A DNA stretch of 64,000 nucleotides from Nitrososphaerota archaeon (GTDB lineage Archaea; Thermoproteota; Nitrososphaeria; Nitrososphaerales; JACPRH01), in the NCBI GenBank assembly GCA_023379805.1, contig JAMCPI010000016.1:8514-72513 (forward strand), in the 5' to 3' direction. Positions 6,142-51,004 of the stretch are shown here, piece after piece. The notes under the pieces are model-generated. The model saw only the letters and a program-made list of their open reading frames with translations, did no database searches and was not told where the DNA came from. The first letter of the stretch is position 1. The number at the start of each line of letters is the position of its first letter. The position numbers were made by a program, and so were the translations under genes.

Positions 6142-7365
6142 ATGACCATCAAAATCGGCTTAATCGGTAAAACGAACACCGGCAAGACGACATTCTTCAA
6201 CTCAGCCACATTAAAAGCAGCTGAGGTGTCCAACTACCCGTTCACCACCAAAAGCCCAAACATAGGCATCGCTCAAACAGCAACCATATGCGTCCACAAG
6301 GAGCTCAATGTCAAAGACAACCCCATAAACTCCCAATGCATAGACGGCTGGAGAGCCATTCCAGTCGAAATCATAGATCTACCCGGACTCATCAAAGGCG
6401 CATGGACTGGCAAAGGCTTGGGAAACCAGTTCCTCTCAGTCGCAGCTCAATCAGACGCCCTCCTACACATAGTTGACGCATCAGGCGGCATAGACGCCGA
6501 AGGCCGAATAACCGAGCCGGGAGCCGGAGACCCAGTAGCAGACCTCGGAGACATCGAGGAGGAGATGGTCATGTGGTACGTCAAACTCATCGAAGGCAAC
6601 CGAGATCGCATCATACGAGGACTACACGCAGACCACACCATAACAACCGGCATGATGGAAGTCCTAGCCGGCATCGGAGTAAACCCAAGTCACATCCAGA
6701 TGGCCCTAGATGAAACCAAGCTCAACGAAGAGGACTTTCCCAACTGGAACGCAGACTCACTGAAACAGTTCGCCTGGATCCTCCGTGACATCTCAAAACC
6801 AACGCTAATCGTAGCGAACAAAATGGATCTCGAAGGCTCAGCTGAGAACTTCAAACGCATCAGAGAGCAGTACAATGACATGATCGTAGTACCTGCAAGC
6901 GCAGAAGCGGAGCTAACTCTAAGGCTCGCAGAACAGAAACACCTAATCAGATACCTACCCGGACAAGAACGTTTCGACGTCCTAGATCAAACAAACTTAA
7001 GCGAAAAACAGCGATGGGCACTATCCTACATCCGGCAAGCAGTACTAGGGGAATACATGCGAACAGGAGTACAATTCGCAATAAACGTAGCAGTATTCAA
7101 ACTCCTAAAAATGAACACAGTCTACCCCGTCCAAAACCCTGAGAAACTCTCAGACAAACGAGGAAACATTCTACCCGACGTATACCTACTCCCAGCAGGC
7201 TCAACAGTCACAGACCTAGCCAAAGAAGTACACAGCGACCTAGCAAGAGGACTACTCTACGCCATCGACGCAAGAACCGGCCTACAGCTACCAACCAACT
7301 ACCAAATCAAAGACAGAGACGTACTCTCAATAGTATCTGCAGCACGAAAGAAAACCCAAACATAG
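6142..7365 (+). CDS. Obg/DRG-class GTPase with a C-terminal TGS-like domain
   Basis: 407 aa. G1 GKTNTGKTT, G3 DLPG, G4 ANKMD. The C-terminal ...YQIKDRDVLSIV is TGS-like. Confidence 0.8.
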   Translation: MTIKIGLIGKTNTGKTTFFNSATLKAAEVSNYPFTTKSPNIGIAQTATICVHKELNVKDNPINSQCIDGWRAIPVEIIDLPGLIKGAWTGKGLGNQFLSVAAQSDALLHIVDASGGIDAEGRITEPGAGDPVADLGDIEEEMVMWYVKLIEGNRDRIIRGLHADHTITTGMMEVLAGIGVNPSHIQMALDETKLNEEDFPNWNADSLKQFAWILRDISKPTLIVANKMDLEGSAENFKRIREQYNDMIVVPASAEAELTLRLAEQKHLIRYLPGQERFDVLDQTNLSEKQRWALSYIRQAVLGEYMRTGVQFAINVAVFKLLKMNTVYPVQNPEKLSDKRGNILPDVYLLPAGSTVTDLAKEVHSDLARGLLYAIDARTGLQLPTNYQIKDRDVLSIVSAARKKTQT

Positions 7366-7945: not shown

Positions 7946-9031
7946 TTGAGCATCAAAAAACATTCGCAAAAGAAAAAGGAAGAACATGCCGCTCGAACCC
8001 CTGACAAATCCGGCAACGATCTTCTAACAACCCCTGTAAAACACTACAACCACCGTCAGGTATCAAACACCGCTGAACTAATAGAATCATTCCAGGGAAC
8101 AGCCTTCCAGAGCCGAAACCTCGCACGCTGCCTAGACGTAATGCTAGACATGCTGCAAGACAAAGACCGCCCAACAGTATTCCTAGCGCTCGCAGGCGCA
8201 ATGGTCCCAGGCGGACTACGCCAAACCATACGCGACATGATAGACATCAACATCGTAGATGTCTTAGTCTCCACAGGCGCAAACCTATACCACGATCTGC
8301 ATGAAGCAATGGGTTTCCACCACTACCTCGCCCAAACAGAGGTACCGGATGTCGAGCTGGCCAAGATGCGTATCGATAGAATCTTTGACGTATACGCCTC
8401 AGACCGCGAGTTCAACCACTCCGACCTCTTCATTAAAAAATTCGCCGACTCACTCAACCCTAGACGCTACTCCACCCGAGAATTCCTATACCTGCTCGGC
8501 TCAAAGCTCAAAGACGAAAACTCCGTGCTCAAAACCGCTGCGAAGAAGAACGTACCAGTCTTCTGCCCAGCAATAGCTGACTCATCGATTGGAATGTCCC
8601 TCACTTGGCACACCCAAGAACGACGTGACGCTGGACGTGAACCTATAGTGATAGACACTATTCAAGACAACCTTGAAATTTTGAAGGTAAAGATGGCGGC
8701 GAAGAAAACCGCTGCGATCCACATCGGAGGCGGAGTACCAAAGAACTATATCCAGCAAATCACCCCAATGGCAGGAATAATGGGCTTAGAAACACCGCCG
8801 CATGCCTACGGCATCGCAATCACCACAGACGACCCGAAGTGGGGTGGACTTTCAGGCTGCACCTTCAAAGAAAGCCAATCCTGGGGCAAATACACTGGTG
8901 ACGCTCACTTCTCCACAGTCTACATGGATGCCACAATCGGTCTACCTCTACTCTTCAAAGCCGCAGTCGAAAGGAAAGCAACCTGGTACAACCGCGAGCC
9001 GCTGCAAATAGACTGGTTAAAAAGCAGGTAA
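7946..9031 (+). CDS. dys: deoxyhypusine synthase
   Basis: 361 aa. FQSRNLARCLDVMLDML...FLALAGAMVPGGLR...VSTGANLYHD...IHIGGGVPKNY are typical DHS blocks. The start codon is uncertain (TTG at 7946). Confidence 0.9.
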   Translation: MSIKKHSQKKKEEHAARTPDKSGNDLLTTPVKHYNHRQVSNTAELIESFQGTAFQSRNLARCLDVMLDMLQDKDRPTVFLALAGAMVPGGLRQTIRDMIDINIVDVLVSTGANLYHDLHEAMGFHHYLAQTEVPDVELAKMRIDRIFDVYASDREFNHSDLFIKKFADSLNPRRYSTREFLYLLGSKLKDENSVLKTAAKKNVPVFCPAIADSSIGMSLTWHTQERRDAGREPIVIDTIQDNLEILKVKMAAKKTAAIHIGGGVPKNYIQQITPMAGIMGLETPPHAYGIAITTDDPKWGGLSGCTFKESQSWGKYTGDAHFSTVYMDATIGLPLLFKAAVERKATWYNREPLQIDWLKSR

Positions 9032-10027: not shown

Positions 10028-11260
10028 CTACTGCTCTAACTCGACCTTACTCATATGAAATAATGGTTTGGCGAAGACCTGTCGAAGCAGCAGAGGCGTA
10101 ATCAGCGTCGTAGCCATGATAACTGTCAACAGGGCCGCATAGGAGTTCTGCTCAAGAATACCTGTGGTCAAACCAATACCTGCCACTATGAACCCCACCT
10201 CACCTCTCGACACCATACCTACCCCAACCCGCAGCCCCCTATCCGCGTCGCGTAGAAACGCCATTGCAGGCAGACCGCAACCCAAGATTTTGCTCGCAAC
10301 CGCAATTAAGAGCAACGCCAAGAAAAGCGGGATACTCATACTCGGGATTTGACCAACGTCAAGCTGCATCCCGATATACGCGAAGAAAATCGGGCCGAAT
10401 ATCAGCCTAAGCTTCTCAACATACTCCTTGACTCTACCAATAAAACGCGAGCCTGCAGTAGCCATCCCCGCGGCGAAGGCTCCTACAATCGGTGACAGGC
10501 CAAATGCCGCCGCTACAGCTGAGAGGCCAAAGCAGCCTGCTGTAGCCGCAGCCTCGGTTATCCCCTCAGTCTTCGAGAGCTTCGTGATGTTGATGAAGCG
10601 TGGAATAATGAATATCGCTCCGAGAAGAAGCGCCATCCAGATGAGCAGAGCTTGACCCGTCAACAAAGCAATATTGGATATCTCAGGTGTACCCCCGCCT
10701 TGGAAGAGCGAAGTGGCTATGGATAGCACAGCCAGCCCCAACACATCATCTATCACAGCCGCGTTCACAATAATCTTCGCCTCCCCCGTACCCATCTTCC
10801 CCAGCTCCTCCAGCGCAGTAACTGTGACAGCGATGCTTGTCGCGGTCAACGCGACGCCTAGCAGAACCGCGGTATGCCACTCATATCCGAGGTAAGCCGC
10901 TAAGAAATACGCTGAGAAGAACGGCACCACTACACCTGACGCCGCTACTGTAAATGAAGAGAGACCGGTTGCGCGCAGCTCACCGAAGGTAATCTGAAGC
11001 CCTGCAGCAAACAGGATAATGATGCTGCCTATCTGCGCAAAAGCTGAGAGAAGAACGTTAAACTCCACCGCCGGCAAACCAAAATTAATCATCGTGCCGC
11101 CCAAGGCGTAGGGCCCTAGAAAGATACCAGCAGAAATCTCCCCTATGACCGCAGGAACATTAACTCGCTGGCAGAGATCACCCAAAATCTTCGCTACAAA
11201 GATGATGACGCTAATCACGACTACTGTGCCCAGCACATCTACCCCAGCAGCAGCGGGCAT
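10028..11260 (-). CDS. monovalent cation:proton antiporter (CPA2, Kef/NapA type)
   Basis: 410 aa with about 12 TM segments. LPAVIGEISAGIFLGP and ...AAVIDDVLGL... are typical of Na+/H+ exchanger-family proteins. Confidence 0.8.
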   Translation of the reverse strand: MPAAAGVDVLGTVVVISVIIFVAKILGDLCQRVNVPAVIGEISAGIFLGPYALGGTMINFGLPAVEFNVLLSAFAQIGSIIILFAAGLQITFGELRATGLSSFTVAASGVVVPFFSAYFLAAYLGYEWHTAVLLGVALTATSIAVTVTALEELGKMGTGEAKIIVNAAVIDDVLGLAVLSIATSLFQGGGTPEISNIALLTGQALLIWMALLLGAIFIIPRFINITKLSKTEGITEAAATAGCFGLSAVAAAFGLSPIVGAFAAGMATAGSRFIGRVKEYVEKLRLIFGPIFFAYIGMQLDVGQIPSMSIPLFLALLLIAVASKILGCGLPAMAFLRDADRGLRVGVGMVSRGEVGFIVAGIGLTTGILEQNSYAALLTVIMATTLITPLLLRQVFAKPLFHMSKVELEQ

Positions 11261-16723: not shown

Positions 16724-17413
16724 ATGGCTGGATATGGTGGGCTACCGAAGATTTGCACAGCTATACCCGCATCCAGCATCGCGGCGCTACAAACAAACTT
16801 GGAGAAGGCCTTCAAATACGGTTCAGACTATGCTGAGATACGGTTTGATTATCTCAACAACATCAACTTCAAGAAGATAACTCCTCCGCTGAAGCCGTAT
16901 GCTGCGCGATGCGTCTACACTTGCCGCAGATATAGTGAGGGAGGTCACTTCAACGGCAAGGAGGATGCTAGGCGGAACATTCTGAAGAGGTTGGCGGAGC
17001 AGCACCCAGCCTATGTCGATGTGGAGCTAAGCACCGTAAGGGAGGCGCCCAACCTTGTAAATAGCCTGAGGTCAAGCGGGACAAAAATCATTGTTTCATG
17101 GCACAATTTCGATGAAACACCGAGCCAAGATGTACTGCGTAAAGCCTACTCAGATGCAGCTAGCTTCGGAGATGTCGCTAAGATAATCACCTTCGCACAC
17201 AGGTTCAGAGACAACAGCTCGGTTCTGTCGCTCTACAACTCGGCGGAGAAAGGGCGGTTAATCGCCTTCTGCATGGGTGAGTCAGGTATCCTCTCCAGGG
17301 TACTCTGCCCGCTGCTAGGTAGCCCCTTTACATACGCTTCCTTGGAGGATGAGAAGACAGCTCCGGGGCAAATCCCGCTTAAGGAGCTCAAGGAGTTCTA
17401 TGCCACCATCTAA
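16724..17413 (+). CDS. aroD: type I 3-dehydroquinate dehydratase
   Basis: 229 aa. AEIRFDYL...VDVEL...IVSWHNF...AKIITFA...IAFCMGESG pattern of type I DHQase. Confidence 0.85.
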   Translation: MAGYGGLPKICTAIPASSIAALQTNLEKAFKYGSDYAEIRFDYLNNINFKKITPPLKPYAARCVYTCRRYSEGGHFNGKEDARRNILKRLAEQHPAYVDVELSTVREAPNLVNSLRSSGTKIIVSWHNFDETPSQDVLRKAYSDAASFGDVAKIITFAHRFRDNSSVLSLYNSAEKGRLIAFCMGESGILSRVLCPLLGSPFTYASLEDEKTAPGQIPLKELKEFYATI

Positions 17414-39485: not shown

Positions 39486-41762
39486 TTACTTCTTCCGCAT
39501 CGCCAGTACTGCTGCGCCAATGATTGCGATGACAGCTATTCCGACTGCCGCATAAGTTACTTCTGAGGGTAGTCCTGTTGTCTGTGTTACTTGTGATGTT
39601 ACTGTTGAGGTTTGAGCTGGTTGTGTTGAGGTGATTGTGGTTGCTTTTGTGGCAGTGGTTACGCTTGTTGTCGCTGACGTGGTTGTTACTGTGGTTGTTG
39701 CGGTGGTGCTTGAAGTGGCTGTAGTCGTAGAGGTTGCAGTGGTGGTTGTGACTAATGTGGAGACCGATGTTGTAGTTACTGTTGAGGTGATTGCTTGGCC
39801 TGCCGGTTTGTCGGATAGTCCTATGGCCATTAGTGTGCCAGGGACTGTAGGTTGTCCACCTAGTCCGTATCTTGGGTCTCCTGCCGCTATTGCTTGTGGC
39901 CCGGTCATTAGGAATATTTTTGAGTCTCCTGCTGAGTCTTTGCCTATAGTTGTTCCGATTACTACTGGTGCACCGATATTCATTTCTCTGAGCATCTTAC
40001 CGTTGTCTTTGTCGAGGAACCTTACTTTGCCGTCTGTGAAGCCTGAGAAGACCATTCCTCCTGTGACGACGATAGCTGCTCTCTGATGACTGTAGCTGTA
40101 GAACCATGACCATTTCACTTTCCCTGTAGCTATGTCTCTAGCGACGATTGTCGAGTTCGCGATTGGATAGTTTCTTACAGTGAAGAGATTCCCGCCCTGA
40201 ATATAGGGACTCTCCAGCAGTACAGTTCTCTGTAGAGCATCTTCGTAGAGGATTATTGCCTGCCCGTCAGGATCGTAGGACATGTCTGTTGCGAAGATAC
40301 CATTGGTCCAAGCTGGATACACTTCAGCCGGTAATGTGTGGTGTTCTCCCTTTTCACCCGGTTTGGTGGCGGGCCAGCTTATCCAGTTCCATTCTCTCAT
40401 GTCGTGGTAGCTCTTAGGATCGGGCATGTATGTCCTGATGCCGTCGGGCGGAGGTTTAGCTGCAGCTGCGCCTACCTGTCCCCTAGCAACTTGGTCTGGT
40501 ATTACATCTACCTTGTACTTTGGCTTACCTGAAGCTGCATCCATTACGTAGAAGATGCCTTCCTTGCAGCCCTTCACGTAGACTTTGCCTAATGCCTTGC
40601 TGTCGATTAGCATGCCGCTCCAGTTACAGTCATAGTCATACGGATCATGTGGGAATGGCTGTAGCCACCAGACTCGTTTGCCCTGATTCAGGTCAATGGC
40701 CATTATAGTGCTACCGTAGAGTCTTGGTCCAGGTGCGAGAGACATGTTTGAGTATGGTCCTTGGTTGCCAGTGCTTGTGTATAGTATACCTGTATCCTCA
40801 TCTACTACTGGTTGGCCCCAGTTGGCTGTTACTCCAGCCCATTTGCTTATTGGCTCTCCTGGTAATCCCCAGTCCCATTCGAGTCCCTTCTGGTTCACAG
40901 CTGCTACTTCGCTGCACGGAACATCTCTGAAGTAGCCTATGCTGCATTCTTGCAGTGCCCAGTCTTTTACTGGAGTGTCATACGGTGGAGATTCGAAGAC
41001 TCGCCAGAGGACGTTGTAAGGTGGATCCATGCTGATGCCCATTGTGACGTGTCGGGCATCGGGTGCGGTGAGTGTGCTGTGCATCGTGCCGGGTAAGATG
41101 TAGATGAACATATGGCCTTTTTCATAAGTCATCAGGTTCGCTGAGTTAGCTAGACCCATGTTCCCCATGTATTGATACAGGTTACCAGGTATGTTTGCGC
41201 AGAGGTCGTTAACGCGGAACTTCTCCTTTCCGTTATTAGCGTCGATGCCGTAGAAGTCGCATGCAATACCATAATCCAGTATTGCATCTCCGCCTGCCCA
41301 GTATCTGATGCCGTGTGAATGAATAGGCATTGCTACTTTCACGGGTAGCCGCTTCTTCACTGCCTCTATGTCGATGGTGTAGTCATAGACCCATTGCTGT
41401 TTACCGGTCTTTGCGTCTACCGCGTATGTTCTCTTGTAATTAGTCATTACGTAGACTTTGCCGTTATGGACGATTGGTGGGGTGGACGATCCTTCTCCCG
41501 GGTTAGCTGCCTGCATACCTGCAGGTGCTAGTGACTTGCCTCCGATAGGGAAGATCCACTTTACTTCTAGATTGTTGACGTTGTCCTTGTTGATCTGTGT
41601 CTGTGGGCTGTAGTTCTGAGCCCATGAGTTACCGTTGACATTCTGCCAGTCTATGCCATCATTTGCTAGTGGTGCTGCGAATGCTAGTGTTGGTGTGAAT
41701 GTGCTGAATGCCAGTATTACAAGTATTATACAGTTAGTTATCCAATATTTGCTTGATAACAT
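39486..41762 (-). CDS. secreted PQQ-repeat beta-propeller (quinoprotein-dehydrogenase-like) protein with a Thr-rich stalk and C-terminal TM anchor
   Basis: 758 aa. Signal-like N-terminus, repeated A-x-D-x-x-T/S-G-K-x-x-W units (AVDAKTGKQQW, VMDAASGKPKY, ARDIATGKVKW, FLDKDNGKML), about 90 aa of T/S/A/V low complexity, then GLPSEVTYAAVGIAVIAIIGAAVLAMRKK. Confidence 0.8.
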   Translation of the reverse strand: MLSSKYWITNCIILVILAFSTFTPTLAFAAPLANDGIDWQNVNGNSWAQNYSPQTQINKDNVNNLEVKWIFPIGGKSLAPAGMQAANPGEGSSTPPIVHNGKVYVMTNYKRTYAVDAKTGKQQWVYDYTIDIEAVKKRLPVKVAMPIHSHGIRYWAGGDAILDYGIACDFYGIDANNGKEKFRVNDLCANIPGNLYQYMGNMGLANSANLMTYEKGHMFIYILPGTMHSTLTAPDARHVTMGISMDPPYNVLWRVFESPPYDTPVKDWALQECSIGYFRDVPCSEVAAVNQKGLEWDWGLPGEPISKWAGVTANWGQPVVDEDTGILYTSTGNQGPYSNMSLAPGPRLYGSTIMAIDLNQGKRVWWLQPFPHDPYDYDCNWSGMLIDSKALGKVYVKGCKEGIFYVMDAASGKPKYKVDVIPDQVARGQVGAAAAKPPPDGIRTYMPDPKSYHDMREWNWISWPATKPGEKGEHHTLPAEVYPAWTNGIFATDMSYDPDGQAIILYEDALQRTVLLESPYIQGGNLFTVRNYPIANSTIVARDIATGKVKWSWFYSYSHQRAAIVVTGGMVFSGFTDGKVRFLDKDNGKMLREMNIGAPVVIGTTIGKDSAGDSKIFLMTGPQAIAAGDPRYGLGGQPTVPGTLMAIGLSDKPAGQAITSTVTTTSVSTLVTTTTATSTTTATSSTTATTTVTTTSATTSVTTATKATTITSTQPAQTSTVTSQVTQTTGLPSEVTYAAVGIAVIAIIGAAVLAMRKK

Positions 41763-41953: not shown

Positions 41954-43750
41954 CTACTTCTTTCGCATTACTAGTACTGCTGCTGCGGCAATAGCTATTA
42001 CAGCTACTCCGATTGCTGCGTAGGTTACTTCTGAGGGTAGTCCTGATGTTTCGGTTACTGATGAGACTACTGTGGTTGTTTGAGTTTGTGCCGGTTGTGT
42101 TGATGTTACTGTGGTGGTGGCTGTGGTTGCGGATGTGGTCGTCAGTACGGATGTGGCGATACTTGTGCTTGTCTGGGTGGTTGTCATAGTTGTTGTCTTT
42201 GCTTGGGAGCTTGCTCGTAGACCTATGCCAACTAACGCTCCACCTGGACTGGCAGTGCTTGGTTTTGCACCTGCATTGACAGCTACGACTATCATTGAGT
42301 TACCGGCGCTATCTTTGCCTACTGAAGGTCCTGTGGGTATTTGGGAGCCGAGATTGAGCTTGTATATCTGTTTGCCTGTGTCTTTATCGAGGAAGGCCAG
42401 GTTTCCATCGTAAGATACTATGACCATGCCGCCTGTGACTGGTCTTTGTGTTCCGCTCATGCGTCGCTCGGATCCGGGGAATGGGCCCCAGGTCCATTTG
42501 ACTTTACCAGTGAGGGCGTCTTGTGCGTAGAATGTGCCGTTTTCTGATGCGCCTGTTTTAACTATCATCCATGAGGCTTTTCCTTGAGATGAGGCTAATT
42601 CGAGATCCCAGGTTTTCATGTATTCTGGTGTTAGGTACGCAAAGGAGTAGATTGTGCCTGCCCCGTCGGTTGATGATTCTCCGACCATGCCGCTGTGACC
42701 TAAAGGTAGGAGGACATTATTTTTGTCACATTTTGCACAGTTTCTTCCCACATCGGTCATCTCCATTTTTCCTGCTCCTGCCCACGGTAGAGTAAGCATC
42801 TCTTTGAAGCCTTCCCAGTTACCTGTGACGTGGTTGTACGTTGGTAAGCGATCTTTGTCGAGAACTGGTGCGGGATCGTAAATTATGTTTGCTCTGAACT
42901 TTTCACCGTATAGCGAAGTGATTGGGTCAAATCTCCTCAAAGGTTTGCCTGTGGCAGCATCGATGTAATTCAGAATTCCGTCTTTGCACGCTTTTACTAG
43001 AGCCTTTCCAGTGGTTCCTAGTCCTGGAACTTCTATAAGCATGGGGGAGTAGAATCCACAGTCCATGTCGTATGGGTCGTGCGGATATTCTGAGACCCAC
43101 CACTTCATTTTACCCTTACTCAAGTCGAAGGCTACTAGGCTGCTGCCGTATAGATTTGGTCCTGGCCTAGAAGTGAGGTTTGAGTAGGGACTCTGGTTGC
43201 CGGTCGCTATGTACATTGTATCGGTGTCCTCGTCAATTATTGGCATACCCCAAGTTGCACTTACACCGTTGAGTTTGTGCGGAGGTTGTCCAGGTACTGC
43301 TTGCCAGTCGTATTCAAGCAGGGATTTGTCGCGCTGCGCCACTGTTTGACAAGGAGTGGTCACGAAGTAGCCAATATCACAGTTTTCTAGCGCCCAATCC
43401 TTGGTAGGCTTGTCCTGAGGTGGTTGTAAGAATACTCTCCAGACTATTTGCTTTGTATCCATATCCATGCCGCCAATCCAGTTTCTGAATGAGGAAAAGT
43501 CACCCTGTAGGCTGCCGTATAGACCCACGATGTACTGATTCCCTTTATCCCAAGTAGCTATTTCGGCTGTACCGATGCTTCCTATTAGTGCGTTAGGTGC
43601 CTGTTTGTAGATACTGCCAGGAACATTCAAACAGAGATCAGTGATCCTGAAATTCTCTTTACCTGTATCGGCGTTTATTGAGTAGAAGTCGCAAGCTATT
43701 CCACCTATCAGTATAGCGTTTCCTTTTTCCCAATATCGGAAGGGTTCTGT
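41954..43750 (-). pseudogene. 5'-truncated paralog of the PQQ-repeat beta-propeller protein
   Basis: The frame is open upstream of the track's TTG start. My translation reads *TEPFRYWEKGNAILIGGIACDFYSINADTGKENFRITDLCLNVPG..., which aligns with residues ~152 onward of the 758-aa neighbour (IRYWAGGDAILDYGIACDFYGIDANNGKEKFRVNDLCANIPG). The signal peptide and about 150 aa are missing. The in-frame stop (43751-43753) lies inside the transposon end. Confidence 0.7.
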
Positions 43751-43767
43751 CTAGTTAAGGTACATAG
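43743..43767 (+). repeat. left terminal inverted repeat of the transposon
   Basis: GGTTCTGTCTAGTTAAGGTACATAG. Imperfect pairing extends about 9 nt further outward. Confidence 0.85.
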
Positions 43768-43775
43768 TATAAATA
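43768..43775 (+). promoter_or_regulatory. TATA-box-like element for the S8 peptidase operon
   Basis: tataaata is centred about 32 nt upstream of the TTG start at 43803. This fits a (near-)leaderless archaeal transcript. Confidence 0.4.
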
Positions 43776-43802
43776 TGCGAGCATTTACAAAGCCTGTCAA
43801 GA

Positions 43803-45974
43803 TTGGGCATTAAATCCTCTAAACAAGATGATTTCATAATCGTATCTCCGCATCCAATTTCAGTTACAAGAGAGATAGTTGGAGGAGGCGCGCCCATACC
43901 TGATGATGAAAAGAAGAAAATCAGGGATGAGATTGATGGCAGGCACCTTGACAAAAAGATACATTCGACATCATCCGCGCTCAGGGATAAGGAACTTCAT
44001 GATGAAAGCAAAATCTATTTTATAGCTGAAACCACCCCAAAAGCCACTGCCTCGCAAATAGACTCTGCACTAACGACGCTCAAAGCTGAAGTTCACTCAC
44101 ATCTTGGTAAAGAACACAAGTTGCTACTGGTATCTGCGCCACAAATTACGCTTGACCACTACATCTTTAAGGGTCTGCCACTAGCAGTTAAGAAACCGTT
44201 TGTTGATTTTCGGCCTCTCGAGTTAAAGGAGCAAATCAGCGAAGATATTCTGGATGATAGCAATTGGACTAATGAAGCTAAACCTTTGGTAATACACCTA
44301 ATCCCTAACGTAGATACGCGCCGAACCGAGCGTTACTTTAAGGAATTGGCACAGTATTTTGAAACCAATAAGGTGCCGATACTCTGGAAAACACCGGTTG
44401 AGTACGGCGCACTAATAGTAGTAATGAATGGTAAAGTAGCTAAGAATCTACTAGAGCAGTCAAATTACATCTTTAAGATTCATCGCGTGCCTCGCGGTAT
44501 CCTCACGACTATACCTCGTGACGGTTCTGTGAAAATACCACGCATTAAAGCCAAGTCTTCATCTGTTGAATTAGCGCCCACTTCCTCTGCTAATGCATTA
44601 CCTGTTGTATGCGTGGCAGATAGTGGTGTGGATATAATACCAGCTCTTTCAGGCCATATTGTTGGACGAAAGAAATACCCTAATTTTGGTAGTCCAGATG
44701 ATGGCAGAGATCCAAGAGGCCATGGAACGCCAATTGCATGTCTTGTAGTTCATGGCGAATGTAATGGTTCTCCTAATGGGAACCCCAGAGCCAGAATAAT
44801 ATCGCATAAGATCTATTCGGATCAGAACAGGGACGATGCCCTTCAAGGGATGTTTGAAGCGATAAGAGAGAACTCATCGGAATCAAAAATATTCGTTTCG
44901 TCAGTAAACTTTGAAAACGCGGATCATGCTTTGCCAACTTTTGCTCTACTGGATAAAATAATTCAAGAGCGTAACATCTGTTTTGTGTCCAGTGCAGGCA
45001 ATATAGACGATGAATTGAAGGAGGTAATAGACCGATACCCAACATATATTCAGAATTACCATGTTCTTCACCCAGCTCAGAATGCACATGTCATAGGGGT
45101 AGGTTCGATTGCGAGAAAGGCGAATGCGGATTCGGTAGCGCGGCGTGGCGAGCTTTCGCCTTTTACTAGATGTGGCAAGACTCTTAAGAAGCTATACGAT
45201 GTTTGCAAGCCAGATATCGCAGAACACGGTGGTAACATCTGCCACAACTTTCACACAAGCGAGATAGGCGTATCCTCATTCTGTAAAAATGGTGACCCAT
45301 CTGATGACTTTGCGGGTACAAGCTTTTCAGCACCGCTTATAGCTGGGCGACTAGCCGAGATTGTAGCTAAGTATGGGCACCGTATAAGAAATGCTGAGAC
45401 GTTCAAGGCAGTCCTATTCATGTTCTGCGATAATCGCAATCTCGCATGCTGTGGACATGGCACGCCTCAACATACTCTTGGAGCAGAACCCGATAGCGCT
45501 GTTTTCGTATCAGAAGGGAATATTCGCCTCTCAGACCTTACCATAAAGGGTTCAGAAACCGAATACTGGGATGAAATAACTATCGGCGTTCCCAAGGGCG
45601 TTAGGGAACTCGAAATATGCTTGGTTCATTCCGATGATTATAACGGAATGAGCGAACCAAGCTTGGACACGTATCTTGAAGTCGAAGCTTGGAAAACTGG
45701 ACGAGAAAACTCTCCAGTTGATCCCACCTACGCATCCCCGCGAAAATCGTACGTTAGGTTTCTAAGCTGGAATTTCAAGACCCATAGTATGGAAGGTCAA
45801 TGGAGGCTTAAGATCATCCCACAAACAACAGAAATCATGAACCATCGCGAGAGAAAAGGCATTACAGTGAGGTATGGATGCGTAATCAAGCTGACATCCC
45901 GTAGCGCGATAACTACCACAACTTTGACAAATCTTGCTCAGCAACAAATGCGGAGATGGGGCTTAACCAGATGA
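43803..45974 (+). CDS. cytoplasmic S8-family (subtilisin-like) serine peptidase with an unknown ~260-aa N-terminal region and a ~170-aa C-terminal domain
   Basis: 723 aa. Catalytic triad contexts VVCVADSGVD (Asp), PRGHGTPIA (His), FAGTSFSAPLIAG (Ser), and oxyanion SSAGNID. No signal peptide or TM. The segment before the catalytic domain (ILWKTPVEYGALIVVMNGKVAKNLLEQSNYIFKIHRVP) looks like a subtilase I9-type prodomain. TTG start. Confidence 0.85.
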   Translation: MGIKSSKQDDFIIVSPHPISVTREIVGGGAPIPDDEKKKIRDEIDGRHLDKKIHSTSSALRDKELHDESKIYFIAETTPKATASQIDSALTTLKAEVHSHLGKEHKLLLVSAPQITLDHYIFKGLPLAVKKPFVDFRPLELKEQISEDILDDSNWTNEAKPLVIHLIPNVDTRRTERYFKELAQYFETNKVPILWKTPVEYGALIVVMNGKVAKNLLEQSNYIFKIHRVPRGILTTIPRDGSVKIPRIKAKSSSVELAPTSSANALPVVCVADSGVDIIPALSGHIVGRKKYPNFGSPDDGRDPRGHGTPIACLVVHGECNGSPNGNPRARIISHKIYSDQNRDDALQGMFEAIRENSSESKIFVSSVNFENADHALPTFALLDKIIQERNICFVSSAGNIDDELKEVIDRYPTYIQNYHVLHPAQNAHVIGVGSIARKANADSVARRGELSPFTRCGKTLKKLYDVCKPDIAEHGGNICHNFHTSEIGVSSFCKNGDPSDDFAGTSFSAPLIAGRLAEIVAKYGHRIRNAETFKAVLFMFCDNRNLACCGHGTPQHTLGAEPDSAVFVSEGNIRLSDLTIKGSETEYWDEITIGVPKGVRELEICLVHSDDYNGMSEPSLDTYLEVEAWKTGRENSPVDPTYASPRKSYVRFLSWNFKTHSMEGQWRLKIIPQTTEIMNHRERKGITVRYGCVIKLTSRSAITTTTLTNLAQQQMRRWGLTR

Positions 45975-46594
45975 TTAATTCGAATGATGTTCGTCCTTCA
46001 ACCAAGGTAGTAGGCCAATTTGAAGAGATCATAATTGCTCAACTGGTAAATCATTTCACGTCTCTTGGGTATAGTGCTATCCCCCATGCTAGATTCAACA
46101 TCGCTTGGGGCAGTATTCTTTCAGATCTAGATGTTTTGCTGATAAAAGGTAACTCACTAACCGTTATAGAAGTCAAATCTAAACACGACAATATAGCGCG
46201 TGCAAGACGCCAGTTAAGGGGGATTGCTGATTACATAGATTATGCATATGTTGCAACAGACAAGATACTAAAGCGATGGGATGAGCCTAAAGTAGGATTG
46301 CTATTTGTCGATAAGAAAGGCGTTAAGTTAGTAGTGCATGCTAAGCAATTTACGAGCAGACCCTCTGCTAGGTCTCTTGTGGCTCTACAAAAGAAGTGCC
46401 TCCTTCGCTTCTTAGGTTATAGAAACTACAATTACATGCGGAAATTCAACATAGCCGAGCAGATTAGAGGCGCAGGAGAGGCGAAATCGTTACGCCAATG
46501 TTTGAGTGAAGTAGTGGTTTGTGGCCAGCGCTGTGATTTAGACTGCCCTGTTTGGAACTTTATTGCCCAGAACTCTCAGAAACCCCAGAGCTAG
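45956..46594 (+). CDS. PD-(D/E)xK (restriction-endonuclease/Hjc-like fold) nuclease-like protein
   Basis: 212 aa. FEEIIIAQL (helix with Glu), SDLDVLLI (Asp) and VIEVKSK (E-x-K) appear in the canonical order and spacing. It overlaps the S8 gene. An alternative in-frame ATG at 45971 gives an ATGA start/stop overlap. Confidence 0.6.
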   Translation: MGLNQMINSNDVRPSTKVVGQFEEIIIAQLVNHFTSLGYSAIPHARFNIAWGSILSDLDVLLIKGNSLTVIEVKSKHDNIARARRQLRGIADYIDYAYVATDKILKRWDEPKVGLLFVDKKGVKLVVHAKQFTSRPSARSLVALQKKCLLRFLGYRNYNYMRKFNIAEQIRGAGEAKSLRQCLSEVVVCGQRCDLDCPVWNFIAQNSQKPQS

Positions 46595-46895
46595 ATTTCT
46601 GAATCTTACCCCTAATTCGCCGCTCCCATTCGTCGTACCCAACTACGCCTTTCTCTTCCAGAAGCTCGACTAATGAGGTTAACATAGTGTCGTGCATCCG
46701 TACCTCTTGCTTAACTTGATCAGTCTCGCTTGCGATGCCCTCAACTTTGAAAGAGGGTAGAAGGATGCCCTTATCGGATAGGTGAGCAATTACGATGTTT
46801 CGGATAACTTCTGAATCGCCATCGCCTAGCGTTCCTTTCAGCTCGTCTATGACCTTCCAAACGCCTTCTGGAAGTGATACTAGTGCGCGCCTCAT
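46560..46895 (-). CDS. ribbon-helix-helix (CopG-like) protein
   Basis: I place the start at the internal ATG (MRRALVSLPEGVWKVIDELKGTLGDGDSEVIRNIVIAHL is an RHH pattern). That ATG overlaps the transposase TGA as ATGA (46892-46895). The 3' end overlaps the convergent nuclease-like gene by 35 nt. Confidence 0.55.
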   Translation of the reverse strand: MRRALVSLPEGVWKVIDELKGTLGDGDSEVIRNIVIAHLSDKGILLPSFKVEGIASETDQVKQEVRMHDTMLTSLVELLEEKGVVGYDEWERRIRGKIQKSSSGVSESSGQ

Positions 46896-47782
46896 GCTCT
46901 CACCACTAACTCCATAGCGTGTCCCGCTATCTTTTCTTGCTTTGTCTTTTCGGTTGTGGCTAGTCTTATCAGGTTCTTCCACCCTTTCACTTCTATGCCT
47001 GCCGCTTGAGCTGGCGTCATCTTTATGCTTTGGTGTTCGCGGCAGAAGTTATAGTGAGTGACCCAGCCATCTAAGAGAGCTTGAGCGGTTGCCTTGCTCT
47101 TTAATCCTCTCATCGGCTTTGTTCTATCCTTAAGTGATCCGTGTAACCTCTCTACTATGTTGTTTGTCTCTCTCGCACGTATGCCTACACGCTTGACTAG
47201 CTCAGGCTGACTAACCTTGTTTGGATTACCGAAGGCAAACCTAAAGGCGTCATCGTAGGTGTTTGAGCCGTCCACAAAGATTGCGTTTGGTTGCGGGTTG
47301 CATCCTTCCTTAATACGCTTGAATTGCTGATATGTTTCGGCTAGGCTTCTACTGTTTGACAGGTATGATGCGACTAGAAAGCGGGTTTCCTCATCGATTG
47401 CCTCCCAGAACCACCTATTCGAGCCGTCAATCTTTACTACGGTTTCATCGTGGTGGATTTTGCCTGATACGGTGGGTGTTAAGGTTCTTGCGTATTCAGC
47501 TGCTAATGCGCTGAACTTCTGAACCCATATCCAGATTGTTCCCTGATTTACTTCTTCTCCTAAGATGTCTCTTAGCTGTCTCTGAACTTTGCGAACCGAT
47601 AATCCTTCAAAGTATAGGTTCATCGCGGCAACCACGATATGCTGGTTAACTCTCATTCGTGGTAATTCGTTTCCATTGTCAACAAAGTGGTGTCCACATT
47701 CTTTGCATAGGTAGCGCTGAAGGTTGCCCTTCATACCGTGCTTAACCACATCTGCGCTTTGGCAGAATTTGCAGGTCGCCAT
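46892..47782 (-). CDS. IS6-family DDE transposase with an N-terminal zinc-ribbon
   Basis: 296 aa. CKFCQS...QRYLCKECGHHF (zinc ribbon). DDE blocks HHDETVVKIDG...WFWEAID, IFVDGSNTYDDAF, ETNNIVERLHGSLKDRTKPMRGLKS, matching the IS6/IS26-type pattern (from memory). Confidence 0.85.
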   Translation of the reverse strand: MATCKFCQSADVVKHGMKGNLQRYLCKECGHHFVDNGNELPRMRVNQHIVVAAMNLYFEGLSVRKVQRQLRDILGEEVNQGTIWIWVQKFSALAAEYARTLTPTVSGKIHHDETVVKIDGSNRWFWEAIDEETRFLVASYLSNSRSLAETYQQFKRIKEGCNPQPNAIFVDGSNTYDDAFRFAFGNPNKVSQPELVKRVGIRARETNNIVERLHGSLKDRTKPMRGLKSKATAQALLDGWVTHYNFCREHQSIKMTPAQAAGIEVKGWKNLIRLATTEKTKQEKIAGHAMELVVRA

Positions 47783-47960
47783 CTTCTTCCCCGTATATCA
47801 GTTATATATCACACTATATATGTATATCTAAAGTATATTAAAAACATATCAGTGTTGCCGTAGGTGAATGTTGGTTCATTGATACATGGAACGGGATTCT
47901 TGATTTGAGCATCAGTATGGTATCGCATTTTTATACCAGCTCCGTTAAGGTCGAATAAAA

Positions 47961-49043
47961 TTGAAGAATCAACGGTTACAACGATATTACAGTAAAGTGA
48001 ATCCGCACATCCAGCCTTACAAATTTAGCACGGTCATAATTTACTTCTTGCTCATAGCCAATTTAGTAGCGGCCACGTTATGGTTACTCAAGTCTAACAA
48101 TGCGGTTGTTTCGATTGCGCCAACCGCTATACTATATCTTGCAGAGGCAAATGGAGTCGCGTTTGCCTTCGTCTTCTCTATCGGCATATACGTGATGAGA
48201 AGGTCTGACGAGATAATATCAGAAAGAATGCCCTTATTCGGATACTACACGATTTGTTACATCATCCTTTTCGTGGCAAGCATAGTCATGCCAATAATCG
48301 CCTCAACAGTTACCGAACTAATCCCTTTGGCTATTTCTCTAAGCGTAGTTTCGCTAGCTCTAATTCCATTCACGTTTGACAAATTCAGGTACAGACTTTC
48401 TCCTAGCTCAATACTCGGGTTCGTGTACAAGAATGCTAAGGAAAAAATCGCTTTGGGCGACTTAGATGGAGCTTGGAGTTACGCTGTAGAGATGGATAGA
48501 ATTGCAAAGGTCATTCATAATGACAATGTTGATCAGTTTGCCAATACTCTCGCGTTAATGCTGGTTGTTATGAACGATGGGGAAGTCGCGCTTAAGGACA
48601 AAAACCAAAAGGTGACCTTTCGTGGTGAGAACCATCCTCACTATTGGATTGACGTTTTCAGATTAAGGTTAACTTGGATTGGTCAGGTGGTGGTAGATGA
48701 TTTTCTTGCTTTTGAGAGGGTCTGCATTGAGGTTGTGGCTAATAAAAACTTCAAAACTTACAGATTCGCTCGCACCGAATACAACATGTCTTTAGTGACA
48801 ATTTGGATGTTGTGCCATTTTGCATTCAAAAGAGGATACACCGAAAGCGCTGAAAAAGCTCTACGTCTCGCTATCCGTGAAAGCGTCGCATCCATGGCGC
48901 TCCCATCATTTGCATTAACCGTACCTGAAGACGAATTCTTAGAATCTGTTGATGGACTTATGTTTTCAAATCCAGATTTAACCCCGCAACTTGTAGCGCT
49001 GAAAACTGACTTCCTTGCACTCAAAGAAAAGAAACAAGGTTAG
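47961..49043 (+). CDS. hypothetical membrane protein (4-5 N-terminal TM segments plus a ~210-aa soluble helical domain)
   Basis: 360 aa. AT-rich codon usage like the rest of the transposon. No family recognised. Confidence 0.55.
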   Translation: MKNQRLQRYYSKVNPHIQPYKFSTVIIYFLLIANLVAATLWLLKSNNAVVSIAPTAILYLAEANGVAFAFVFSIGIYVMRRSDEIISERMPLFGYYTICYIILFVASIVMPIIASTVTELIPLAISLSVVSLALIPFTFDKFRYRLSPSSILGFVYKNAKEKIALGDLDGAWSYAVEMDRIAKVIHNDNVDQFANTLALMLVVMNDGEVALKDKNQKVTFRGENHPHYWIDVFRLRLTWIGQVVVDDFLAFERVCIEVVANKNFKTYRFARTEYNMSLVTIWMLCHFAFKRGYTESAEKALRLAIRESVASMALPSFALTVPEDEFLESVDGLMFSNPDLTPQLVALKTDFLALKEKKQG

Positions 49044-49055
49044 AACCATTACGAT

Positions 49056-49080
49056 CTATGTACCTTAACTAGACAGAACC
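49056..49080 (-). repeat. right terminal inverted repeat of the transposon
   Basis: ctatgtaccttaactagacagaacc is the reverse complement of 43743-43767. Confidence 0.85.
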
Positions 49081-49088
49081 GTTTCCGA

Positions 49089-49104
49089 AAACCAAAACAA
49101 TCTT
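49089..49104 (+). repeat. partial third copy of the start of the non-coding repeat family
   Basis: aaaccaaaacaatctt matches the first ~15 nt of copies 1 and 2 only. It lies directly after the transposon end. Confidence 0.4.
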
Positions 49105-49158: not shown

Positions 49159-49401
49159 ATGGAAACCAAATACACCGTCAAGATAACTACAAAGGACAAG
49201 CCTGCACGGATCTCAAAAGAGGTTCAAGAAGGCCTAAAGGGTGTTTTAAGCGCCAAGAAGGTACGTGAAATGAAGCTCGAATACGTAGACTGCCCAGTCC
49301 TTCAACGTGAAGCCCCCTTCCTTGAATGCTTCGTCTGCCCAAACCACATTCGACGGTACAAGGGCGAGGTTCACTGCGCCGGCAACCCACTACCTCAATA
49401 A
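49159..49401 (+). CDS. hypothetical small Cys-containing protein
   Basis: 80 aa. C-x12-C-x2-C-x12-C spacing. It overlaps antisense ORFs of similar size, so coding status is uncertain. Confidence 0.35.
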   Translation: METKYTVKITTKDKPARISKEVQEGLKGVLSAKKVREMKLEYVDCPVLQREAPFLECFVCPNHIRRYKGEVHCAGNPLPQ

Positions 49402-50231
49402 AGCCGTCCACAACGCAAAACACAAGCGCAGCCAGCCTCAAACGGCTCCTACCTTATATCTCCTCACGTCCACCGCTTGCTTCGCAGATGCCGCTTTTTG
49501 TTACCTTGCTACGCCCCATCTTCGACGCTGCGCAAGGTCAACCCGCATCTTCTGCTCATCCGAAAGATTCTCCCCACAGGACTTGTGATACGGACTCAAC
49601 CTGTTATTCTGATCCAAACGGTAAAGAACATCTTCCCGCTTCACATCCTTGCATTGACACATACAGAGACCCACCGCACAAATCATAATTAAACCGATCG
49701 GCTCACCGCAGACTCCCAACTATACCCAAAACTAACCAATAATCTTCACCATTCTACCAATTACATTTTAATTATCAATCAACAACTTTCAGCTCCGAAC
49801 GACCCTTCCACCATTTCTAACATACTAACAAAAGGAATCACTGGGATGTAGTCTTGCAAGCCGGCGTCATGGATCCTTGCAACTCATGCAGCAGTAGGTA
49901 CTCTACTTGATGCAAATCCAGTAATGCAACAACTGGTTTTCTACAGGCATTTCTATCCTTTTTAAACCTCCCCCCTCGGCCTATGGCAGCACTGGTGCCG
50001 GCGCACCAAGGCGTACTAGTTTAACCAAAAAAACATTACAAGTAATCAACCGCCTAAGGTCGATAAAGATATCGTTAACTCCACCTATCAAAGCTCAAGA
50101 AATGCCGCATCTATCCTATCTGGAAGATATGATCAGCGAGCTGGACTCCTTTCCTGCCTGCATCGCACCAATATGCGCAAAGCAATCTAAGCGTCTAAAG
50201 TCAAAAAATGTATGTGGATTCAATGGGGCGA

Positions 50232-50948
50232 GATGTTGTTAGGATAAGCCGTTGAGTAGCACCCAGTTGTAGGTGGCTGTGAATGCTTCTAGGAATATCG
50301 TTATGGATTGTATAGTTGAGCGGTAGGGGAAGTTGTTGTAGAAGCGTTTTAGCTTGGCCTTGAGGATGCCGAACCATCTTTCGATGCGGTTCCTCATACC
50401 AAAGGTTTCATGCCTGAACTAACTGGTCTCATGCCTATACTCTAGGCCAAGCCTCTTGAATGCTTCCGGATACCAAGGCCCCTTATCCACTAGGAACAAA
50501 GGCTTGTTGGCGCAGTACTGGAGAACCTGTTTGAGGAAGAGTTCAGAGTCGAGAATGCTTCTAGCAAAGCTGCATCTGACTGCTAGGATTTCCTTAGAAT
50601 CAACATCTCGGGCTGCCCAGATGAATATCTGCTGCCCAACCAGCTTAGTCTTGGTCTCATCCACAGCAACCGCTCTTCGACTCTTCTTCTCAGGCTCAGG
50701 GAAAGCCTTCCTCAACGCAATGAACGCATCCCTAACACTGACGTAAGAGATGCTTCCACCCATCATCTCAGAAGCCTTTCGATACGACAGGCCTGCAAAG
50801 CACAACATAGCAGCCAATACCTTGCTCTCAGCAGGAACCTTATTCCTCTGAAACACACCTGACTCCCTAACCCTACTAACCACCACCTCAAGAGCACACA
50901 TAGGATTACAATACGCACAGAACCGTAAAACCCTATCCTAACAACATC
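50232..50948. mobile_element. IS6-like insertion sequence (717 bp) with 14-bp perfect TIRs and an 8-bp target-site duplication
   Basis: TIRs are gatgttgttaggat (50232-50245) and atcctaacaacatc (50935-50948). The flanking direct repeat is tggggcga (50224-50231 and 50949-50956). Confidence 0.8.
50239..50901 (-). pseudogene. IS6-family DDE transposase interrupted by an in-frame TAG inside a 21-nt tandem duplication
   Basis: The track ORF ends ...GLEYRHETS*. The same frame continues FRHETFGMRNRIERWFGILKAKLKRFYNNFPYRSTIQSITIFLEAFTATYNWVLLNGLS* (my translation). DDE blocks are AVDETKTKL, LFLVDKGPWY, NRIERWF. The duplicated tcatgcct lies at 50408 and 50429. Confidence 0.8.
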
Positions 50949-51004
50949 TGGGGCGATGCCGAAATGCTTTTCGGTAACCACCAATTATCTCATCGAGATG
51001 CGAT

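Follow-up and report, generated by a model that had tools for sequence, protein, structure and literature searches.

A probable IS6-family unit transposon with passenger genes in a Nitrososphaerota archaeon and its cargo-carrying relatives in other archaea

Results

Gene content and boundaries of the element

The 64,000-nucleotide stretch of the genome of a soil/groundwater Nitrososphaerota archaeon analysed here (hereafter the window; positions 8,514 to 72,513 of contig JAMCPI010000016.1, assembly GCA_023379805.1) contains, at positions 43743–49080, an element of 5,338 bp with five open reading frames (ORFs) that is bounded by perfect 25-bp inverted repeats. From left to right, the element encompasses genes for an S8 peptidase and a nuclease-like protein, a small ORF and an IS6-type transposase gene, both on the reverse strand, and a gene for a membrane protein, which is the order given in the original prediction, made from the sequence of this locus alone. 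The left repeat (43743–43767, forward strand), GGTTCTGTCTAGTTAAGGTACATAG, is the exact reverse complement of the right repeat (49056–49080, reverse strand), with all 25 positions paired; a repeat search extends the pair to 28 nucleotides at 96% identity (43740–43767 and 49056–49083). When up to three mismatches are allowed, these are the only two copies of the 25-bp repeat in the window. No match appeared in any of 100 dinucleotide-preserving shuffles, so that a chance occurrence of the repeat pair is not to be expected, and the proposal that these repeats delimit an element holds.

Both ends of the element start with GGTTCTGT, and the repeat, beginning GGTTCTGTC, contains the GG tip and the cTGTt motif by which the ends of IS6 elements are defined (PMC7986276), in agreement with the IS6-like character ascribed to it at the outset. 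The ‘caaa’ motif of IS6 ends is not present in the window repeat. The GGTTCTGT 8-mer is also found at positions 17221, 44523 and 50917 of the window, in no case extending into the repeat, and its overall count of 5, against 1.9 expected, is unremarkable.

The base composition of the element differs from that of its surroundings: with a GC content of 0.439, compared with a mean of 0.483 (SD 0.023), it is the lowest-GC stretch of 5.3 kb in the window, the cargo genes themselves ranging from 0.42 to 0.44. The element is assembled through on a 275,566-bp contig of a Nitrososphaerota metagenome-assembled genome (MAG), and two assemblies made independently, SRR10278331 and SRR10267473, reproduce the 5,338-bp structure with identical junctions, which indicates that it is not an assembly artefact.

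The transposase, the accessory gene and an operator-like region

The gene at 46892–47782 (reverse strand) encodes, in an intact frame, a DDE transposase of the IS6 family, 296 amino acids (aa) in length, with an N-terminal Cys4 zinc ribbon. The protein scores 147.6 bits against the NCBIfam model NF033587 (transpos_IS6; cut-off 125) and matches the Pfam domain DDE_Tnp_IS240 with an E-value of 3.5e-21, whereas its N-terminal part matches the zinc-binding domain of IS1/IS1595 transposases (43 bits, cut-off 28). In an alignment with 25 relatives, the zinc ligands C3, C6, C25 and C28 and the catalytic residues D111, D170 and E210 are invariant, as is K217, such that the window protein shows the arrangement that characterizes IS6 transposases, namely, a DDE triad with a lysine or arginine seven residues after the glutamate. 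An intact IS6-type transposase thus lies inside the element, away from both ends, as originally read.

Adjoining the transposase gene is a conserved accessory gene (46560–46895, reverse strand) for a 111-aa protein, with an N-terminal part that resembles the ribbon-helix-helix (RHH) proteins and a conserved C-terminal helical motif, MLTSLVELLEEKG. In the window element and in many relatives alike, the transposase stop codon overlaps the start of this ORF. Clustering of the ORFs of the 47 elements then delimited (that of the window included; one further relative, L086, was added later) places a homologous small ORF directly 3' of the transposase in at least 35 of the 47, whatever the cargo; the recurring families are the transposase, present in all elements, and this small ORF, the rest being variable cargo. 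Judging from this arrangement, the small ORF belongs with the transposition module more plausibly than with the passengers, so that three of the four passengers initially counted retain this status.

Altogether, we identified 152 homologs of the small ORF, in which two conserved parts can be discerned, an N-terminal one (MRRALVSLPxGVWxVID...SEVIRNIVIAxLSEKGYL) and a C-terminal helical one (DxMLTSLVELLEEKG); in Bathyarchaeia, the two parts are encoded as two separate small genes. As to the description of the protein as an RHH protein, some of the homologs are named CopG/Arc/MetJ by JGI, but sequence searches of Pfam and the PDB yielded no match, and the fold is not confirmed by modelling. The model built from 43 sequences (pLDDT 70) consists of an unstructured N-terminus followed by two helices, its best fold match in the PDB, to NikR, is not significant (E = 1.4), and the model built from the single sequence is poor (pLDDT 46).

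Upstream of the transposase gene, at approximately 47790–47855 (reverse strand), there is a promoter- or operator-like region in which four GATAT[A/G] repeats surround a TATA-like box; four such repeats occur within 135 bp, compared with an expectation of 0.23 derived from the entire element. This layout of repeats and TATA-like box is seen in eight relatives from the same sub-clade, including L008, L009, L012, L014, L017, L021 and L023, the number of repeats ranging from four to seven across the window element and these relatives, and the region is also conserved in L082, a decayed sister of the window element described below. In other sub-clades, this position is taken by other palindromes, such as GGTATC...GATACC and ATATCCATAGGGATAT. 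Plausibly, the GATAT[A/G] region is a putative operator involved in autoregulation of the transposase.

Related elements in archaeal genomes

When archaeal genomes were scanned, one per species, 69 loci were obtained with transposases 42–75% identical to that of the window over the best matching segment. Delimitation at these loci and at three others (L003, L008 and L086) resulted in 47 related elements in addition to the window element, with transposases 43–71% identical to the window transposase. They come from Nitrososphaerota, Bathyarchaeia and Methanolobus, with M. vulcani B1d, an isolate, among the hosts. The ends of all 47 elements are homologous, with the consensus GATaCTGTTaagTTa, and start with G[G/A]T[T/A]CTG (consensus G[G/A]T[T/A]CTGTT). 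In the full set of 48, that is, with the window element, the shortest element measures 1,798 bp and the longest 7,988 bp; the median is 3.8 kb, and 37 elements reach at least 3 kb. Cargo is, accordingly, the rule in this archaeal clade rather than the exception, and the size of the window element, initially singled out as unusual, is so with respect to the curated IS6 elements but not within this clade.

Target duplications are present around 40 of the 47 relatives, 9 bp long in 32 and 8 bp long in 8, and are missing in the remaining 7, one of which, L017, begins at a contig end, so that its left flank is unreadable. Because a duplication around the whole unit implies that the unit was inserted as one piece, the homologous repeats of the window element can be identified as transposon ends. 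The transposases closest to that of the window among those examined, 71% and 66% identical, both belong to units with homologous repeats. The element with the 66% identical transposase, L008, is a 3,627-bp unit with 23-bp ends, GGTTCTGGTAAGTTAATGTCCAT, and a perfect 8-bp target duplication, CCGTATTT, on either side. The other of the two, L003, has ends starting with GGTTCTGATAAGTTAAGGGACAT and a length of 3.9 kb, and carries genes for PIN-like and DUF3800 proteins. Its terminal repeats are unusually long (6352–6420 and 10166–10234; 69 nucleotides at 91% identity), reaching inward from the common 25-nucleotide core, and target duplication is absent.

A further relative, L086, is a complete 6.8-kb IS6-type transposon from a Bathyarchaeia MAG (GCA_041500565.1), the transposase of which is 47% identical to that of the window. 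The ends of this element are perfect over 25 bp, the duplication, CGGTCTAGG, is 9 bp long, and the genes are arranged as in the window, with the S8 peptidase gene followed by the nuclease gene, small ORFs and the transposase gene.

The length of the duplication splits by sub-clade. Among the nine relatives with a TTAAGG or TTAATG end core, it is 8 bp in L008, L009, L010, L012 and L021 and 9 bp in L014, and no duplication is present in L003, L011 and L023. Among the relatives with other types of ends, which come from Bathyarchaeia, Methanolobus and some Nitrososphaerota, 9 bp prevails, 8 bp being found in L020, L052 and L065; L052 has GGTTCTG-type ends of another kind. The 9-bp duplications occur mostly in relatives that are more distant from the window element.

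Taken with the properties of the ends and the transposase, the 47 relatives, with homologous ends around a transposase and cargo, and the duplications of 8 or 9 bp around 40 of them sustain the proposal of an IS6-type unit transposon, and we conclude with high confidence that the region 43743–49080 is one IS6-family unit transposon with passenger genes. Two other accounts of the repeats can be judged by the same evidence. If the inverted repeat had nothing to do with the transposase and were a regulatory palindrome or one that arose by chance, the missing target duplication of the window copy, described below, would be accounted for, and nothing else would be. This account is refuted by the shuffles, by relatives of the L008 type and by the duplications that flank the repeats across the 47 relatives, and we give it practically no credence: the repeat is found nowhere else in the window and has no match in viral contigs, and the repeat family co-varies with the transposase clade.

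The other account is that of a composite, in which a short IS, made up of transposase and small ORF, took up adjacent genes via one of its own ends and a stray end or the end of a second copy. Such an origin would be in line with the classical mobilization of genes by IS6 elements as pseudo-compound transposons with two IS copies, and with the location of the window transposase, which adjoins neither end. A search for an inner short IS, however, gave no repeat copy near the transposase with three mismatches allowed, so that this candidate was rejected; the window contains only the two terminal copies, and there is no remnant of a second transposase inside the element. Furthermore, pseudo-compound IS6 transposons comprise directly repeated IS copies rather than a single transposase between inverted ends (PMC7986276), and in 40 relatives the duplications surround the whole unit. 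A composite origin therefore appears very improbable compared with a single unit transposon.

Cargo of the window element and its relatives

The first passenger gene of the window element (43803–45974, forward strand) encodes a 723-aa peptidase of the S8 (subtilase) family (Pfam Peptidase_S8, 2.8e-24) with recognizable D, H and S motifs (DSG, HGT and GTSFSAP, the latter conforming to GTSxSAP). At E ≤ 1e-10, it has 76 homologs, mostly full length. The peptidase is distantly similar to IetS of the IetAS system: it matches the PADLOC IetS profiles with an E-value of 9e-39, although the match is partial, covering residues 140–538, and the score against the NCBIfam IteS equivalog, 97.5 bits, is far below the cut-off of 900.

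The second passenger gene (45956–46594, forward strand) encodes a 212-aa protein resembling PD-(D/E)xK nucleases, with weak matches to the sce7726 family (39.5 bits, cut-off 70) and to CARF_PDDEXK, and with the residues D57, D59 and E72-V-K74 invariant in the alignment. In all five other genomic contexts inspected, the S8 gene is likewise followed by a gene for a protein of 196–227 aa, and the three of these partner proteins that were aligned are 36–53% identical to the nuclease-like protein of the window. An IetA ATPase adjoining the S8 gene was not found, and the 212-aa neighbour gave no ATPase match. Given that the partner is a nuclease-like protein of about 210 aa rather than IetA and that the IteS score is low, this two-gene module is different from IetAS. 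The S8 peptidase and the PD-(D/E)xK nuclease appear to form a conserved pair and a candidate anti-virus module.

The third passenger gene (47961–49043, forward strand) encodes a membrane protein of 360 aa (348 as called) with four N-terminal hydrophobic segments, which matched no family in searches of Pfam, NCBIfam-type and defence profiles. This gene occupies a variable slot, bounded by the transposase promoter and the right end: in L082, the gene has no counterpart and the repeat directly adjoins the transposase promoter, and in L086 the slot is filled by a methyltransferase gene.

The S8–nuclease pair also occurs at loci from which the transposition functions have been lost. The decayed sister L082 (8778–9309), located in an integrase-bearing island with a genomic context unlike that of the window, retains the S8 gene, the nuclease gene, the small ORF and a transposase stub of 16 codons, next to which lies a single repeat identical to that of the window in 23 of 25 positions; this solo copy corresponds to the right repeat of the window element. 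L096 (8001–11077) contains the S8 gene, the nuclease gene and the small ORF, with neither transposase nor repeat, so that L082 and L096 represent a decay series of the same cargo module. Contigs L097 and L098 stop just beyond the small ORF, at a point at which an assembly would be interrupted by a repeated transposase. A left repeat was not found in the transposase-less S8–nuclease loci L082, L096 and L097.

Other members of the clade carry, among other genes, those for a fusion of an N6/N4 methyltransferase with an Mrr-type nuclease, GmrSD, an enzyme combining HSDR_N_2 and N6_Mtase, DUF3368-containing PIN-like proteins, HATPase_c_3 proteins and DUF3800 proteins. From these domain assignments, the cargo of the clade looks like a set rich in defence genes.

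Flanks and history of the window copy

The left flank of the element is occupied by a gene for a PQQ-dependent dehydrogenase paralog (41954–43741, reverse strand) that lacks approximately 151 N-terminal residues. In a tblastn comparison, residues 152–758 encoded by the neighbouring PQQ gene (39486–41762) align to 43741–41957, such that the homology runs to within two bases of the left repeat, in accord with the original placement of the repeat at the point where this homology ends, and no fragment for the missing 151 residues was detected by tblastn anywhere in the window. The two PQQ genes are tandem paralogs on the reverse strand, 39% identical, and both proteins contain a Thr/Ser-rich linker and a C-terminal hydrophobic anchor. 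On the right side (49081–49091), the sequence TTCCGA lies within a 9-nucleotide palindrome, TTTCCGAAA, in inverted orientation relative to TCGGAA at 43734–43739. The extension of the inverted repeats outward into these flanks, to about 34 bp, that was initially proposed is not tenable: G[G/A]T is where the repeat begins in all 47 relatives, and TCGGAAG on the left belongs to the coding sequence of the PQQ gene (F-R of FRYW). A longer terminal repeat was therefore rejected.

Several observations weigh against the interpretation of the window element as a unit transposon or are left unaccounted for by it. There is no direct 8-bp target duplication, the flanks being ATCGGAAG and CGTTTCCG, so that the insertion of this particular copy is not directly demonstrable. 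The inverted 6-mer TCGGAA/TTCCGA shared by the outer flanks is real, with an offset of 1 nucleotide and a simulated P of ~0.002 that was obtained post hoc, but it is predicted by neither a deletion nor an inversion model. Neither exact-protein look-ups nor one metagenome scan uncovered an empty site, a further copy of the element or a close ortholog of the PQQ gene in its genomic context. Finally, the small ORF is retained beside the S8–nuclease pair in L096 even though transposase and repeat are missing there, so that its role in transposition is not proven. Both the missing duplication and the inverted flanks had been recognized from the start.

An exact look-up of an 80-aa ORF in the right flank retrieved the same locus only, and the neighbouring PQQ gene is not on record. 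In JGI metagenomes, the relatives of the PQQ paralog comprised only homologs of 37–39% identity or a short fragment and were uninformative on the state before insertion. The window contains no tRNA genes or Rfam families as integration targets.

Absence of a duplication is nevertheless common in the clade, being seen in 7 of the 47 relatives, and has precedents: intramolecular transposition of IS6 elements produces adjacent deletions and copies without matching flanks, such that an attack in cis deletes the DNA between element and target and leaves one copy, whereas an attack in trans inverts the segment and leaves two copies (PMC7986276). The exact transposase protein is on record on one NCBI contig only, and the element is bridged in three assemblies, which suggests a single copy and favours adjacent deletion over inversion. 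The earlier suggestion of an inversion or deletion through intramolecular transposition thus fares unevenly: deletion fits better, given that an inversion would leave a second copy, whereas this copy assembles through. An adjacent deletion of the kind known for IS26 would account for both the missing duplication and the truncation of the PQQ gene and is the likeliest scenario for this copy, although we rate its chance as only about even.

Under an alternative that keeps the same transposon, the missing duplication and the truncated PQQ gene would result from recombination between two copies or from an attack in trans, with inversion, each copy retaining one flank from each original site. For the trans outcome, each copy is indeed described as receiving one original and one target flank, with the target copies inverted (PMC7986276); the flanks of the window element share an inverted 6-mer, and the seven relatives without duplications could be seen in the same light. 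Both routes, however, require a second copy, for which the record of a single NCBI contig with the exact transposase offers no sign. Repeats of 5.3 kb usually break short-read assemblies, but the element is bridged in the 275-kb contig and in two other assemblies. Moreover, an inversion would place the inverted target copies on different copies of the element, not on either side of one, and the match between the flanks needs an indel. We therefore regard this alternative as possible but doubtful.

Whatever the route, the element might be an immobilized relic, that is, a former transposon that became fixed in the lineage and is kept for its cargo, with the repeats and the transposase no longer cooperating. 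The single copy without target duplication, the identical junctions in three assemblies with no empty-site variant found, the decay observed in relatives (a stub and one repeat in L082, neither in L096) and the 1.2 kb that the membrane-protein gene puts between the transposase promoter and the right end would all fit this possibility. It is countered by the intact transposase frame with all catalytic and zinc-binding residues, the 100% identity of the two 25-bp ends and the intact accessory gene that overlaps the transposase stop codon; besides, in many relatives with duplications, the transposase is located 1–4.7 kb from an end. On balance, we consider it rather unlikely that the window element is such a relic.

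A second, unrelated IS6-type element is located to the right of the transposon. This relic (50231–50949) is 719 bp long, with 16-bp perfect ends, AGATGTTGTTAGGATA, and GGGGCG on both sides; its transposase is split between two ORFs, 50419–50901 and 50239–50397, and scores 80 bits against the NCBIfam IS6 model, below the cut-off. The segment between the transposon and the relic (49400–50230) shows pronounced negative GC skew, down to −0.34, and lacks a long ORF.

Discussion

The element described here combines the hallmarks of one transposon family with an organization that departs from it. Curated IS6 elements are mostly 0.7–0.9 kb long, with a maximum of ~1.76 kb, and consist of one ORF with 14–20-bp repeats and 8-bp duplications (PMC7986276). 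The window element resembles IS6 elements such as IS26, IS257/IS431 and IS6100 in having a transposase that scores above the IS6 cut-off and GG/cTGT ends, and its closest relatives generate 8-bp duplications; copies without duplication next to truncated genes are also a known outcome of IS6 activity. The differences are the size of 5.3 kb, the five genes, the 25-bp repeats and the conserved second gene after the transposase, along with the duplications in the wider archaeal clade, which are mostly of 9 bp as opposed to 8 bp in the family. The interpretation as an IS6-family unit transposon is thus in agreement with the transposase and the ends typical of IS6 and departs from the family in size, gene content, the accessory gene and, for most of the clade, the 9-bp duplication. 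Because compactness and a single ORF describe the curated members rather than the mechanism, we file the 5,338-bp, five-ORF element as a variant of the family, not as a typical member.

Within the family, two further comparisons are close. ISDsp3 from Dehalococcoides sp. BAV1, the only listed IS6 member with a passenger gene (PMC7986276), likewise has extra coding capacity between its ends but is, by its description, a bacterial element present in a single copy with one hypothetical passenger, as compared with three passengers in the window element and 1–7 kb of varied cargo across an archaeal clade. Zinc-finger transposases are recorded only in the clostridial clade h of the IS6 family, with proteins of 340–350 aa encoded in 1.23–1.46-kb elements (PMC7986276); the window transposase shares with these the N-terminal CxxC...CxxC zinc-binding extension but, going by the description of clade h, differs in its length of 296 aa, its archaeal host and its association with multi-kilobase elements. 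Outside the family, the unit transposons and ‘tIS’ of bacteria (the Tn3 family and cargo-bearing elements of the IS1595 and IS481 types) also feature one transposase, terminal inverted repeats, internal passengers and, as in the relatives of the window element, duplication around the whole unit. The window element differs from these in its transposase family, the lack of an evident resolvase or res site, and its archaeal host.

In a 2019 survey of Thaumarchaeota, IS-like transposons were described as containing ‘typically 1 or 2 genes’, and transposons with passenger genes were stated not to have been detected in archaea (PMC6563490). In the literature searched, cargo-bearing IS6 elements of archaea are not described: apart from the IS6 review, with its single bacterial case, the matches were unrelated or were false ones to IS605, IS607 or IS630, although ISfinder lay outside the comparison and an earlier description is possible. 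Apparently, then, a large archaeal group of cargo-carrying IS6-type transposons has previously gone undescribed. With confidence only slightly above even, we suggest that the window element belongs to a widespread, undescribed archaeal branch of the IS6 family that consists of 2–8-kb unit transposons with a two-gene core (a zinc-ribbon transposase and a small, DNA-binding-like accessory protein) and mostly 9-bp duplications. These elements would serve as vehicles for defence genes, including restriction-modification, GmrSD, PIN, DUF3800 and S8-peptidase/nuclease genes, and, among archaea, they would represent the first clear class of DNA transposons with cargo.

A mechanism for the window element can be proposed by assigning its transposition module on the strength of homology and drawing on the IS6 family for the steps. 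The module, as identified by homology, consists of the zinc-ribbon DDE transposase, the small accessory gene, the iteron-rich promoter upstream and the two 25-bp ends. The transposase is expected to bind both repeats and to nick their 3' ends, which would then be joined to a target cut with a stagger that, in this sub-clade, is 8 bp, such that the whole unit moves replicatively via a cointegrate that is probably resolved by host recombination. In the history of this copy, an intramolecular replicative attack in cis would have removed the 5' part of the PQQ gene together with the DNA between that gene and the element, leaving a single copy without target duplication, a course of events to which we assign about an even chance.

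In bacteria, antibiotic-resistance genes are moved mainly by IS6 elements such as IS26 and IS257, which are considered to do so only as pairs of IS copies that flank the cargo. The archaeal clade shows that an IS6-type transposase is able to move several kilobases of cargo enclosed by its own ends. Archaea of soil, sediment and groundwater possess such vehicles, much of the cargo of which looks like anti-virus defence, and the S8 peptidase and PD-(D/E)xK nuclease pair is a new candidate two-gene defence module. The main interest of the window element lies in the clade that it reveals rather than in this single, possibly immobile, copy: 25-bp ends and one or two proteins would make up a simple, testable system in which to study gene flow in ammonia-oxidizing and sediment archaea, and possibly a genetic tool for these organisms.

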